DNA from: an uncultured Candidatus Rokubacteria bacterium
GTDB taxonomy: Bacteria; Methylomirabilota; Methylomirabilia; Rokubacteriales; CSP1-6
Assembly: GCA_963771355.1 (NCBI GenBank)
Contig: CAVYTA010000007.1
Location: forward strand, 32,001-96,000
Direction of reading: 5' to 3'
DNA: 64,000 nucleotides
This document shows, piece by piece, positions 61,006-64,000 of the stretch. Below the pieces are notes generated by a model. It searched no databases. It saw nothing but the letters and a program-made list of their open reading frames with translations, and was not told where the DNA came from. Both the position numbers and the translations under genes were made by a program. Position 1 is the stretch's first letter. The number at the start of each line of letters is the position of its first letter.

Positions 61006-61746
61006 TCAGTCGATGCGGCGGGACTTGACGACGTTCGGCCGAAAGGATGGCTGGGCCATCGTCCCACAGTTGGGCGTCAGGAACTTCACGTCCTTCGTTT
61101 CGTTCGGCTTCAAGACGACGTTCTGGCTCCTCGAGAGTTGATCCTCGGAGCAATCCAATGAGCGAACCGCGCCTTGCCAGGTCTGTGTCTGCACGTTCTT
61201 GATCTGAAACAGCGCGTCCACGTTGGTCTTGTTTTGCGGGTTCAGGCCCCAACGATACCGGTATTGGACTCCCTCGCCGCGAGTCCACTTCGACCACTCG
61301 CCGGTCCGGTACGCAGCGGCCGGCGAGGCCGGGGCGGCCGGCGGGGCGGTTGGTGGCGCGGCTGGCGGGGCGGTCGGCGGGATGGCCGGCGCCGCGGACG
61401 CGCGGCGGGCGGCCGCCGCGCGGTTGTCGGCGGCCGTCTGGGCGCGCGTCTCGGGCGTCACGCAGACCACATCGTCAGGGCGCGCCTCCCTCCACACATA
61501 CCCGCCCACGCAGGTGTTCGGCCCGTACGCCCCTCCGCCCGGCTGGCGCCGGGCGCCCGCTTGGGCATTGTCCTCGGCGGCTTGCTGGCGGATCGCCGGG
61601 GTGACGCAGACGTGGTCGCCGGGGACGGCCTCGCGCCAGACATAGCCTTGGCGGCAAGCATCCGACGGAGGCGACTGGGCACGGGTGGTGGCGGCAAGAC
61701 CACAAACGAGCCCCGCGACGAGGAGGCCGGCTGTCATTCGGGTCAT
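61006..61746 (-). CDS. Secreted protein with two CxxGYVWREAxPxDxVCV repeats, Pro/Ala linker and C-terminal beta domain
   Basis: Signal peptide; repeats CRQGYVWREAVPGDHVCVTP and CVGGYVWREARPDDVVCVTP. Confidence 0.78.
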   Translation of the reverse strand: MTRMTAGLLVAGLVCGLAATTRAQSPPSDACRQGYVWREAVPGDHVCVTPAIRQQAAEDNAQAGARRQPGGGAYGPNTCVGGYVWREARPDDVVCVTPETRAQTAADNRAAAARRASAAPAIPPTAPPAAPPTAPPAAPASPAAAYRTGEWSKWTRGEGVQYRYRWGLNPQNKTNVDALFQIKNVQTQTWQGAVRSLDCSEDQLSRSQNVVLKPNETKDVKFLTPNCGTMAQPSFRPNVVKSRRID

Positions 61747-61766: not shown

Positions 61767-61991
61767 CTACTCGCGAAAGACGACGCGCCAGCCGGTGTCG
61801 CCGATCTCGATGCGCTCGACGCGCACGATGGCGAGCGGCTTCCAGGGTGCGGCGAGCAGCGTCGCGAGCGCGGCGTTCTTCCCCGCATTGGTCGTCTGAG
61901 TGTCGGGCTCGAAGAGCGACGTCTCCACAAACGGGGCCGCCGCCGGGCTCGCCGCCGCCGCGGCCCGCTTCCTCGACCTGGGCTTGCCCAT
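61767..61991 (-). CDS. Small hypothetical protein (74 aa)
   Basis: Tightly packed in the operon, SD GGAGG upstream. Confidence 0.55.
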   Translation of the reverse strand: MGKPRSRKRAAAAASPAAAPFVETSLFEPDTQTTNAGKNAALATLLAAPWKPLAIVRVERIEIGDTGWRVVFRE

Positions 61992-61994
61992 CGT

Positions 61995-63512
61995 CTAACC
62001 CTCCACGCCCGCGAGGTACACCTTGGTCCGCGCGAGGAGCGCATCATGCTTCCGGATCTCCTCGTCGAGCGCCTTGAGCGCCGATTCGTTCGCGGCGAGC
62101 TGCTCGCGCAGGTACTTCTCGGCGTCGGGCCCGCGCGTGGGGAAGCCCGCGACCGCCGTCGCCGCATTCGCCTGCGCCCGCTTGATCGCGGCGATCGAGA
62201 CGTAGAGCCGCCCGCGATACGTGGTGACCCGGTCGAAGCCCGCGCCGACGTCGAGCGGCCGGCCGGCCGCCCACACCACCTCGAGCGGGCCGCCGGGGTT
62301 GCGCACCCCGAGGAGGTTGGAGGGATAGGTGGCGGGAACAATCCCGCCGAGCGCGTCGAGCTCGCCGACCAGCCCGCTCGCACCCTGGTCGCCCCGGGCG
62401 GTGAGGGCCTTCAGCGTCTGGTACTCGATGGCCAGGGCCGCCGTCGAGGAGAGCCGCACCCCGAGGTCGCCGCGCAGCGCGGGACTCACGCCGCGCTCCA
62501 GCACCGCATGCGTGGGCATGGGCGGCCCGAGCAGCCCCCCCGGTCCGATGGCCATGTCGAAGCCGAGATAGCCGATCACCAGCGGCCGGGCGAAGTCTTC
62601 GGCCAGGGAGATGCTCCCGGACGAGGCGGAGACCACCTTCACGGTGCCGCCAGGGGCGAGATTGCTCCCGCCCACGCGCTCGAGGGCCTTGGCGATCATG
62701 GTGTTGAGCGCGGCGATATTGCTCGTATACGCCTCCAGGGTGTTCTTCTGCGGATCCGCGCCCGCGTTCGGCACCACGAGGTCCACCGGCTTGGCGGCGC
62801 CGCCGGACAGCGTGGCCCCCGAGCTCTTCGAGGACTGGAGCGAGACGTTGATCCGTCCCGTGATGTAGACGCGTGAGACCACGCGGACGTAGTTGGTGCG
62901 CTGAGGATCGCCGCCGTAGTACTGGAGGAAGGCGCGGTTACCGTCGGCCCAGCGCCGGACGTCGTCGTACAGCGAGATGGTATCCACGCCGTAGGTCCGC
63001 GCTTCCGCGATGGTGATGGTGCCCTGGGTGGCGTCGCCGCCGAGCAGGCTCAGCCCCACCGGGATGCCCTGCACGGGGAGCGCCACGTTGAAGCCGCCGC
63101 CCCGACGCGCGGAGAAGGCATAGGTGGGGAAGCTCGCGTTCGGCGCCAGCGTCCAGGAGGCCGGCTTGCCCGGCTCGAGCCAGTGCTTGGGCAGGGGATG
63201 CTGGGGGTCGCCCGCCTCGAAGGACTGGCGATAGAACGTCTCGTAGCCGCGAGGATCGAGCCGGAAGATGAGGTTGTCGAGCGGGAGGAAGCCACGCTCG
63301 CGATAGGTCTTGGCCTGCTCGTCCACCGTCACCTGGACGAGGAAGATGTCGCCGGGCTGGAGGTCCTCGGTCAGCGGATAGACGGGGACGATCTGGCTCG
63401 CACGGATCACCATGGACCAGTCGCGGGCGACGCGCTGAAGCTCGCGGTCGCTCACCGCCCGCGCACATCCCGATGCCGCCAGCGCCAGCAGGATCCAGAC
63501 GATCACGCGCAT
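61995..63512 (-). CDS. Lipoprotein with possible gasdermin-like pore-forming domain
   Basis: Lipobox AASGC, SD GGAGG; motif order PVYP..DLQPGD / YVRVVSRVY / GGTVKVVS / PLVIGY; gene is solid, fold call is tentative. Confidence 0.6.
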   Translation of the reverse strand: MRVIVWILLALAASGCARAVSDRELQRVARDWSMVIRASQIVPVYPLTEDLQPGDIFLVQVTVDEQAKTYRERGFLPLDNLIFRLDPRGYETFYRQSFEAGDPQHPLPKHWLEPGKPASWTLAPNASFPTYAFSARRGGGFNVALPVQGIPVGLSLLGGDATQGTITIAEARTYGVDTISLYDDVRRWADGNRAFLQYYGGDPQRTNYVRVVSRVYITGRINVSLQSSKSSGATLSGGAAKPVDLVVPNAGADPQKNTLEAYTSNIAALNTMIAKALERVGGSNLAPGGTVKVVSASSGSISLAEDFARPLVIGYLGFDMAIGPGGLLGPPMPTHAVLERGVSPALRGDLGVRLSSTAALAIEYQTLKALTARGDQGASGLVGELDALGGIVPATYPSNLLGVRNPGGPLEVVWAAGRPLDVGAGFDRVTTYRGRLYVSIAAIKRAQANAATAVAGFPTRGPDAEKYLREQLAANESALKALDEEIRKHDALLARTKVYLAGVEG

Positions 63513-63543: not shown

Positions 63544-64000
63544 TCAGGTCCCGCCCACCGCTCGCTCGCGCAGCGCCTTCACCATGCCCGCGTCGAAGGC
63601 CTCGCGCACGGGCAGCCCCTCGCGCTCCTGGAACATGCGGAGCGCGGAGCGTGTGAATCGCCCCACCATGCCGTCCACCGGCCCCGGGTTGTAGTCGAGG
63701 TAGACGAGATAGGCCTGGATGGCCCGCACATTGAGGTCCGGCAACGCGCCCGTCACGTACTTCTGCTGCGCGGCGCGCAGCCGCTCGTCGTAGGAGTTCT
63801 TGGCGTAAGCCGGACCATTGTAGGCGGCGGCGAAGGCCGGCCAGTTGTGCGCGCGTAGATGCTTGTCGGCGCCGATCGACGCGATGAAGCGCGCCATGCC
63901 TTCGAGCTGGGCGTTCTCCGACTCCACGAACGCGGCGACCATGGGCTCCACGTCCGGGAATCCCGCCGCCTTGAAGTTCTCCCCCATCACCTGCCCCAGC
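63544..64000 (-). CDS. N-acetylmuramidase (DUF3380) with C-terminal peptidoglycan-binding domain, 5' truncated by the window
   Basis: GQVMGEN...SENAQL...W.AFA..YNGP.Y..NSYD; PGPVDGMVG..T..ALRMFQ...GL. Confidence 0.85.
   Translation of the reverse strand, partial: LGQVMGENFKAAGFPDVEPMVAAFVESENAQLEGMARFIASIGADKHLRAHNWPAFAAAYNGPAYAKNSYDERLRAAQQKYVTGALPDLNVRAIQAYLVYLDYNPGPVDGMVGRFTRSALRMFQEREGLPVREAFDAGMVKALRERAVGGT

Follow-up and report, generated by a model that had tools for sequence, protein, structure and literature searches.

A predicted lipoprotein family with a gasdermin-like core, swappable tails and a small partner gene, seen from an uncultured Candidatus Rokubacteria bacterium

The DNA analysed here is a 64,000-nucleotide (nt) stretch (the window, G000:C7:32001-96000) of contig CAVYTA010000007.1 from an uncultured Candidatus Rokubacteria bacterium, whose genome measures 5.5 Mb at 70% GC. 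Near the end of the window lies the gene of interest, which is single-copy in this genome: a minus-strand open reading frame (ORF) at 61995-63512 that starts with ATG and encodes a predicted lipoprotein of 505 amino acids (aa). The original prediction, made by eye from the sequence, proposed that the product may be an exported, lipid-anchored pore former with a gasdermin-like fold and a helical tail, working together with an adjacent muramidase. The ORF and its lipobox were confirmed, with a short n/h region in residues 1-15 and A-S-G ahead of Cys16, and all six quoted motifs are present in the order given, at residues 41-57, 133-146, 152-168, 208-225, 288-303 and 310-318. The helical tail is likewise seen in the AlphaFold model, where residues 357-505 are mostly helices. 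The 74-aa ORF at 61767-61991 had been missed. The features of the locus are as follows.

63465..63512, minus strand: type II signal peptide (residues 1-15) with Cys16, predicted from the sequence pattern to be lipidated
62496..63437, minus strand: predicted gasdermin-fold core (residues 26-339), from AlphaFold models with VIA-align and Foldseek
62988..63122, minus strand: putative membrane-inserting hairpin 1 (residues 131-175), Gly-rich, with alternating hydrophobic columns
62547..62891, minus strand: putative hairpin 2 (residues 208-322), with a poorly ordered loop of ~45 aa and a helix at its tip, at about 240-286
Residues about 340-356: low-confidence linker between core and tail, from the predicted local distance difference test (pLDDT) of the model
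61995..62444, minus strand: helical C-terminal tail of type A (residues 357-505), one half of a swappable cassette
61767..61991, minus strand: small partner gene of type A, 74 aa, starting 3 nt past the lipoprotein stop
63544..64000, minus strand: PF11860 muramidase with a peptidoglycan (PG)-binding domain, of which the C-terminal part lies in the window (260 aa at full length)

The quoted motifs fall in nearly invariant columns of alignments of 109-126 homologues, and two independent structure searches put gasdermins first, so the motif series goes beyond what chance would supply. The full-length AlphaFold model has a pLDDT of 78, and a core-only model reaches a pLDDT of 80 with a predicted TM-score (pTM) of 0.79. 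In Foldseek searches with either model the top 8 rows are all bacterial gasdermins (bGSDMs), and the match to PDB entry 7n50 has E 9.4e-6 for the full-length model and 1.2e-6, at probability 1.00, for the core. The TM-scores, 0.44-0.47 by target, are modest, as is expected given the inserts present. VIA-align, a structure search that does not lean on Foldseek, aligns 205 residues of each model with 7n50 (Z 10.3 and root-mean-square deviation [rmsd] 4.2 for the full-length model; Z 10.9 and rmsd 4.5 for the core), with model residues 26-339 set against residues 2-250 of the structure. For the core model, rows 1-13 are all gasdermins of bacterial, fungal or animal origin, followed by pneumolysin (201 residues aligned at Z 5.4 and rmsd 5.9), another cholesterol-dependent cytolysin (CDC) and a CDC-like protein (CDCL), with Z down to 4.9; the best unrelated row has Z 4.5. 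CsgG is absent among the matches listed in four structure searches, the last of which extends down to Z 3.2, although no direct comparison with CsgG was made and a remote relation is possible. The nearest named Atlas cluster has PF26164 (Bact_GSDM) in 13% of its members at a score of 0.83, which we take as a lead only. Sequence searches of the lipoprotein gave no significant match in Pfam, NCBIfam, PADLOC or PDB sequences, the Pfam copy being one that may not include PF26164. With both models returning gasdermins first in both searches, the gasdermin-like fold originally proposed is borne out at the level of prediction, and we consider it very probable that the core has this fold.

The stretches of low pLDDT in the models coincide with the presumed membrane fingers, including the middle of hairpin 1 in both. 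The assignment of hairpin 1 as a finger is itself drawn from the gasdermin match, and the position of the hairpin-2 tip is a presumed one. The alternation of hydrophobic residues in the hairpins is visible by column, and the Gly-rich alternating columns are strongly conserved. In 116 of 119 loci the motifs that flank hairpin 2 lie 77-105 aa apart; the other three loci have spans of 123, 237 and 262 aa. We think it probable that the core forms pores. In planctomycetes, loci L025 and L035 and several representatives of 620-700 aa carry 140-170 additional residues in the hairpin-2 tip region.

The lipoprotein belongs to a large family. A homologue search returned 880 proteins and a profile search at least 1,548 (with the best 7,996 candidates scored), and an exhaustive search resolves the family into 1,271 clusters at 50% identity; no functional name is attached to any family match among the matches listed. 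The N-terminal ~340 residues are conserved across the family, while the tail is variable. The four closest relatives in the Genome Taxonomy Database (GTDB) are 81-85% identical, and other hosts are found among Planctomycetota, Verrucomicrobiota, Acidobacteriota, Betaproteobacteria, Nitrospirota (including a named Nitrospira species, P0074) and Rokubacteria, with distant members on Rhizobium and Cupriavidus plasmids. The distribution is patchy, the gene being present in 6/183 genomes of the host's order (all of one genus), 7/151 of an Acidobacteriota class and 10/301 Planctomycetota. No viral relative was found in IMG/VR or phage records, and no viral structure matched at E ≤ 0.001. A search for shorter homologues gave 106 matches, apparently fragments of the same family, and no bridge to bGSDMs. 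Locus comparisons used a sample of 160, made up of 80 of 133 GTDB loci and 80 of at least 241 metagenome loci. Some members are irregular. In an Anaerolineales metagenome-assembled genome the family gene is split into two pieces (L072:1794-3583), and the distant gasdermin-core proteins L175:7983-9239, L176:7941-9260, L194:5034-6911 and L208 show neither a tail match nor a partner. A lipobox is present in the distant core proteins carried by Rhizobium and Cupriavidus plasmids, with HipA, helicase or integrase genes nearby, and the L194 core is interrupted by a long coiled-coil insert.

Lipoprotein signals were judged by pattern, from a Cys, its preceding residue and a hydrophobic stretch. A Cys that follows G, A or S and a hydrophobic stretch is present in 75/75 GTDB loci, where it precedes the first core motif by 17-30 residues (5 of the 80 loci, which the pattern did not anchor, were left out of this count), and in 45/47 metagenome loci with enough upstream sequence; of the two misses, one is mis-anchored and the other has Asn preceding the Cys. 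The lipobox Cys is almost invariant in family alignments, and a Tat-like motif occurs in 0/112 loci. Proteins with a lipobox are exported through Sec and receive a diacylglyceryl lipid, and an Asp at position +2 acts in Escherichia coli as an inner-membrane retention signal; here Asp is found at +2 in just 4/112 loci. Judged from this pattern, the protein is very probably a lipoprotein, and the claim of an exported, lipid-anchored product stands as a prediction for the family as a whole. A second position near the N-terminus also draws attention: residue 33 (about 63414-63416), which follows a conserved D-W, is Cys in 74/135 homologues and Ser here. As it lies near the region aligned with the bGSDM N-terminal helix, it could be a second site of lipidation or a disulfide site.

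Sequence comparison across loci indicates that the conserved partner of the lipoprotein is the small downstream gene and not the muramidase. Among 131 loci that have an intact gene end and 250 nt of downstream room, clustering finds a homologous small ORF downstream in 119 (median 67 aa, median gap 12 nt), and a profile adds 3 for a total of 122/131; several of the 9 loci left without an assigned partner have an unclustered small ORF. A blind rule that asks only for an ATG, a ribosome-binding site and a downstream ORF of 40-140 aa is satisfied by 103/131 family genes and by 16/388 control genes. In the host's order, the partner and the lipoprotein occur in the same 6 of 183 genomes and are adjacent each time. 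For the partner gene, nonsynonymous divergence (pN) is below synonymous divergence (pS) in 6/6 pairwise comparisons. Its product has a Lys-rich N-terminus, no signal peptide, no clear membrane helix and no match in the Atlas, and 36 partners gave no significant match in sequence libraries, Pfam among them. No partner domain fused to the lipoprotein was seen in 375 proteins, apart from one weak match on a 120-aa fragment.

The muramidase gene lies on the same strand and ends 31 nt upstream of the lipoprotein gene; its full 260-aa product, which extends past the window to C7:96326, matches Pfam Muramidase at E 1e-57 and PG_binding_1. The adjacency and co-orientation noted in the original prediction are real, but a functional unit is not supported across the family, as the muramidase is found in 13/160 loci, all from close relatives, where 123 loci had at least 900 nt of upstream sequence. 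It had also been suggested that the genes beyond position 64000 be inspected for a caspase-like or other protease; no caspase-like one adjoins the lipoprotein gene. Elsewhere in the family, caspase genes occur in 8/160 and CHAT genes in 6/160 loci, nearly all of them within a single syntenic group of Burkholderiales (single-query tblastn, which remote proteases could escape). A Pfam scan of the nearest genes at GTDB loci (66 upstream and 48 downstream, near-duplicates and small partners excluded) shows scattered proteases and no family that recurs beyond single clades; across the family loci there is no conserved protease, substrate or accessory gene.

The variable tail and the small partner go together. 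There are 53 partners of type A and 39 of type B, and five further types are small. The A/B split was made by tail length; a sequence graph agrees, and its only two cross-links run through the Lys-rich leaders. Clustering the tails on sequence alone (107 rows) gives groups of 44 A, 31 B, 8 B, 5 C, 9 D+F, 2 G and 2 H with six singletons, so that each cluster is pure for partner type except for one mixed D/F group. The tail type equals the partner type in 12/12 loci that were outside profile building, this window among them. The core does not follow the same division: in a tree of 107 cores from IQ-TREE the types interleave, with 18 changes against a minimum of 7. A type A locus (L100) is sister to a type B locus (L108) at 99% SH-aLRT (Shimodaira-Hasegawa-like approximate likelihood ratio test) support, and B and C are mixed within a 99% clade. 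Tail and partner also change faster than the core (pN 0.11-0.25 against 0.03-0.10), and by a crude count the core has a pN/pS near 0.1-0.2, and tail and partner one of about 0.2-0.7. These sequence data make it highly probable that tail and partner form a cognate module.

The cassette is also found on proteins without a gasdermin core. Genome searches with the tail and partner profiles uncovered four genomes with such carriers, two with tail B and partner B (L192, L193) and two with tail A and partner A (L215, L216), with E 4e-6 to 1e-11 for the tail, 2e-6 to 8e-10 for the partner and 0.14 or worse for the core profile. Three of the carriers were scanned and gave no family match. Because tails also cap these unrelated lipoproteins, and because distant gasdermin-core lipoproteins exist without tails, it is doubtful that the tail is an inhibitory domain of the gasdermin kind. 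Tails range from about 70 to 190 aa; in this window the tail is modelled as helices with pLDDT >90 for most of residues 361-490, and its structure matches are helical bundles only. By eye, the carriers at L191:508-1677, L190:736-1701, L198:reverse 461-1441 and L216:976-1914 make up three unrelated, unnamed lipoprotein-like families, one with a long hydrophobic helical hairpin and one rich in alternating beta-hairpins. A tail-A match in L217 proved to be the coiled coil of an ABC-F ATPase and was rejected as a false positive. In Candidatus Brocadia, an ORF at L039:2018-2737 (plus strand) fuses a partner-B domain to a second tail-B domain that follows it, and between the two lies a short internal duplication; this single case is a genuine fusion or else the remnant of a duplication.

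Set beside bGSDMs of known structure (PDB 7n50, 7n51, 7n52 and 8sl0; PF26164), the lipoprotein has the whole core fold in register, a predicted lipid-bearing Cys near the N-terminus and a C-terminal extension past the core. The bGSDMs are cytoplasmic and without an export signal, whereas the family has a predicted Sec/signal peptidase II signal; Cys16 lies ~10 residues ahead of the position aligned with the bGSDM start, identity is 11-14%, and the core is ~70 aa longer, with a fingertip insert. In place of a short inhibitory peptide, which in the Vitiosangium gasdermin is 29 aa (PMC10153256, in part; sources so marked are cited here and below for their available portion), there is a swappable helical tail of 70-190 aa; no dedicated protease (caspase-like, CHAT, trypsin-like or subtilase) is encoded alongside, and a small partner gene is conserved. 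The bGSDMs require a palmitoylated N-terminal Cys (PMC10153256), and since this lipid is thought to enter the membrane ahead of finger refolding, the lipoprotein anchor could serve the same role from the opposite side of the membrane.

Two other groups of pore-forming proteins come close. Pyroptolysins are gasdermin-CDC chimeras that act on sterol membranes from outside (10.64898/2026.10.05.756811, in part), and were first noted in PMC10153256. As proposed for the present family, they turn a gasdermin fold against non-self membranes from outside, in environmental Gram-negative hosts and without a protease operon. However, they carry a sterol-sensing C-terminal CDC-like immunoglobulin (Ig) beta-sandwich with a WP motif where this family has a helical tail, and they are mostly solitary genes, in contrast to a lipobox protein with a near-constant partner gene; the word "lipoprotein" has 0 occurrences in the main text of the preprint. 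The CDCLs of Bacteroidota are pore toxins with an SpII signal, protected against by a surface immunity lipoprotein (PMC11169675, in part). They resemble the family in belonging to the giant-pore superfamily, in their signal and, as proposed here, in targeting other bacteria, and they are activated by a non-dedicated surface protease, with the immunity gene in their operon. Their fold, however, is CDC/MACPF (in VIA-align the core model scores Z 4.2-4.9 against it and 10.9 against a bGSDM, and gasdermins lead CDC/CDCL proteins by over 5 Z units), they pair large and small pore components where here there is a single copy and no second component, and immunity is provided by BcdI, a surface lipoprotein of 30 kDa, rather than by a small signal-less protein. 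Since each of these systems fails on a defining feature, the lipoprotein, gasdermin-like by fold, is placed outside canonical bGSDM defence, the pyroptolysins and the CDCLs.

The arrangement of the gene pair recalls polymorphic toxins, in which a conserved exported N-terminus is joined to a variable C-terminus with a cognate small gene downstream, and cassettes are shared (MafB/MafI, PMC4287609, in part). The layout is the same here, with C-terminus and small gene found together on different carriers (compare also CdiA/CdiI, PMC4725963, in part), and it leads us to favour an outward-acting toxin: a lipid-anchored gasdermin pore directed against other cells, in which the tail would be the payload and the partner would confer immunity. 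The gasdermin match, the family-wide lipobox, the tight gene pair, the cognate, mobile and faster-evolving cassette and the patchy spread of the gene all speak for this reading, with MafB/MafI, the CDCLs and the pyroptolysins as precedents. We hold it tentatively, at somewhat less than even confidence. In such a system, Sec export and lipidation by Lgt/LspA would take the place of the cytoplasmic Cys palmitoylation of bGSDMs, and the lipoprotein would reach the outer membrane or vesicles. The core would then oligomerise in a neighbour's envelope into a large beta-barrel, a non-dedicated protease would cut the flexible linker (340-356) and free the tail, and the tail would cross the pore. The partner, likely a cytoplasmic immunity protein or safety chaperone by analogy, would bind the tail both before export and upon re-entry and so shield the producer and its kin. 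The family differs from polymorphic toxins in that its tails have no recognised toxic domain and come in few types, that there are no orphan cassette arrays and that the carrier is itself a predicted pore-former. A further step, that a gasdermin pore in a rival's envelope delivers a swappable payload and that cassettes shuttling among unrelated lipoprotein carriers represent a new lipoprotein-based class of polymorphic toxins, is a speculative one that we think rather unlikely.

Several observations count against an outward toxin. The partner has no export signal, whereas the tail is exported on the side of the lipid anchor, so that any encounter between the two is confined to the time before export or to a cytoplasm into which the tail has been delivered; in CDCLs, by comparison, immunity comes from a surface lipoprotein (PMC11169675). 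The hairpin alternation is not significant, its best window being equalled by 18% or more of 300 shuffles, and the fingertip insert of hairpin 2, at ~45 aa, greatly exceeds the 8-11 aa of fingertips in the Vitiosangium gasdermin pore (PMC10153256) and may hinder spontaneous membrane insertion. The gene pair is single-copy and stably kept in the genus (5/7 other genomes). Spare cassettes, arrays of which are a hallmark of Maf islands (PMC4287609), are missing: with flanks of 3-8 kb, 0/132 loci have two partners and 1/138 (L039) has two tails. No known toxic domain was found in 30 tail segments or whole proteins, none of which scored above the Pfam cut-off, and tail B is just ~70 aa. Finally, the core tree is a quick search with long branches, and for this reason only the short-branch cases of swapping are relied on.

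The main rival, which we judge unlikely, is that the protein forms a harmless channel in the outer membrane of the producer itself, a non-lethal beta-barrel with a CsgG-like job for which the tail would be a periplasmic adaptor and the partner a chaperone or cargo. A universal lipoprotein signal, a core under strong purifying selection and a single-copy, genus-stable gene that comes with neither spare cassettes nor a dedicated protease all agree with such a channel; the long fingertip insert could serve as its outer gate, and the L039 fusion of partner B and tail B suggests a structural pair. However, a partner without an export signal is not ordinary periplasmic cargo, conserved substrate or accessory genes are absent, and the gasdermin-fold proteins characterised in the literature consulted are lytic (PMC10153256; 10.64898/2026.10.05.756811).

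Less probable still is a self-killing defence acting from the periplasmic side, in which the lipoprotein, primed in the envelope, perforates the inner membrane upon attack by phage or predator and the partner is a cytoplasmic sensor or brake. Its nearest structures are indeed bGSDMs, which are known from anti-phage defence, and some members lie beside caspase, CHAT, trypsin-phospholipase D (PLD), TPR-S, HipA or integrase genes. These neighbours are clade-specific, however, the caspase domain begins at residue 3 and so leaves no room for a signal peptide, no PADLOC match was obtained, and the rarity of Asp at +2 (4/112) does not point to the inner membrane. Similarly improbable is a scaffold that makes no pore, a relic of the gasdermin fold that displays the tail on the cell surface. 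The presence of the same cassettes on unrelated lipoprotein N-domains means that a pore may be dispensable, and large fingertip inserts are tolerated; yet the strong conservation of the Gly-rich alternating hairpin columns is as expected under selection for insertion, and the other carriers may themselves insert in membranes. That lipoprotein and muramidase breach envelopes as one unit for lysis, predation or secretion, as originally proposed, is very improbable, since the two genes, though they share a strand, are separated by 31 nt and stay side by side in the genus, where the muramidase could be a local add-on, are paired in close relatives only (13/160 loci), and the muramidase has no export signal by eye.

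In the literature searched, whose coverage leaves out most subscription journals, no lipoprotein gasdermin was found. A preprint on clustering of AlphaFold models describes two gasdermin-like clusters that lack annotation, of which one is diverse, and in its available portion signals go unmentioned (10.1101/2023.03.09.531927, in part); the lipoprotein family could lie, unremarked, inside the diverse one. PMC13475620 mentions neither signal peptide nor lipoprotein, and the available portion of PMC11952106 adds nothing on lipoprotein gasdermins. Outward gasdermin toxins (the pyroptolysins) and lipoprotein pore toxins (the CDCLs) are already known; the cassette architecture is novel. Before the pyroptolysin preprint appeared in October 2026 (10.64898/2026.10.05.756811), gasdermins were taken to work from inside the cell, and the present family would form a second, separate and large gasdermin branch outside the cytoplasm, by the lipoprotein route. 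This bears on the proposal that gasdermin suicide derived from toxins against non-self membranes (PMC10153256), and the shared tail and partner cassettes offer a handle on several hypothetical lipoprotein families together. Cultured material exists, since members occur in a named Nitrospira species and, as distant ones, on Rhizobium and Cupriavidus plasmids.

Three other genes near the lipoprotein were considered as parts of the system and rejected: a Cys-repeat gene, a papain-like gene and a TPR-like (tetratricopeptide repeat) gene are found in 1, 1 and 0 of the 160 loci. The Cys-repeat gene (61006-61746, minus strand) begins 20 nt past the partner gene. Its 246-aa product, which has no family match, seems to carry a signal peptide and contains two repeats bounded by Cys, a linker of Pro and Ala and a C-terminal domain that also includes Cys. 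The papain-like gene (L001:9781-11931, plus strand; C7:97780-99933) lies beyond the window, on the opposite strand and 2.3 kb from the lipoprotein gene, and its 717-aa product fuses a C1 peptidase to a probable alpha/beta-hydrolase behind a basic N-terminal leader; a homologue (38%) is also close to a family gene in L148. A scan for promoters and terminators gave results at chance level, and four rhizosphere RNA runs from one study gave thin, flat cover of the pair and its neighbours alike, from which nothing is concluded because DNA carry-over is possible.

In Burkholderiales, seven loci (L045, L048, L052, L060, L061, L069 and L074) have the lipoprotein gene divergent from a caspase gene, and six of them also hold a gene for a ~1,880-aa DUF7379-CHAT-TPR-S protein. 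This is the sole clade with a gasdermin-fold gene beside caspase-like proteases, and the caspase/CHAT loci are probably one conflict island. Elsewhere in the window, positions 22001-28000 have a low GC content (0.57-0.60 against 0.70) and a strong GC skew, and are likely a foreign island.

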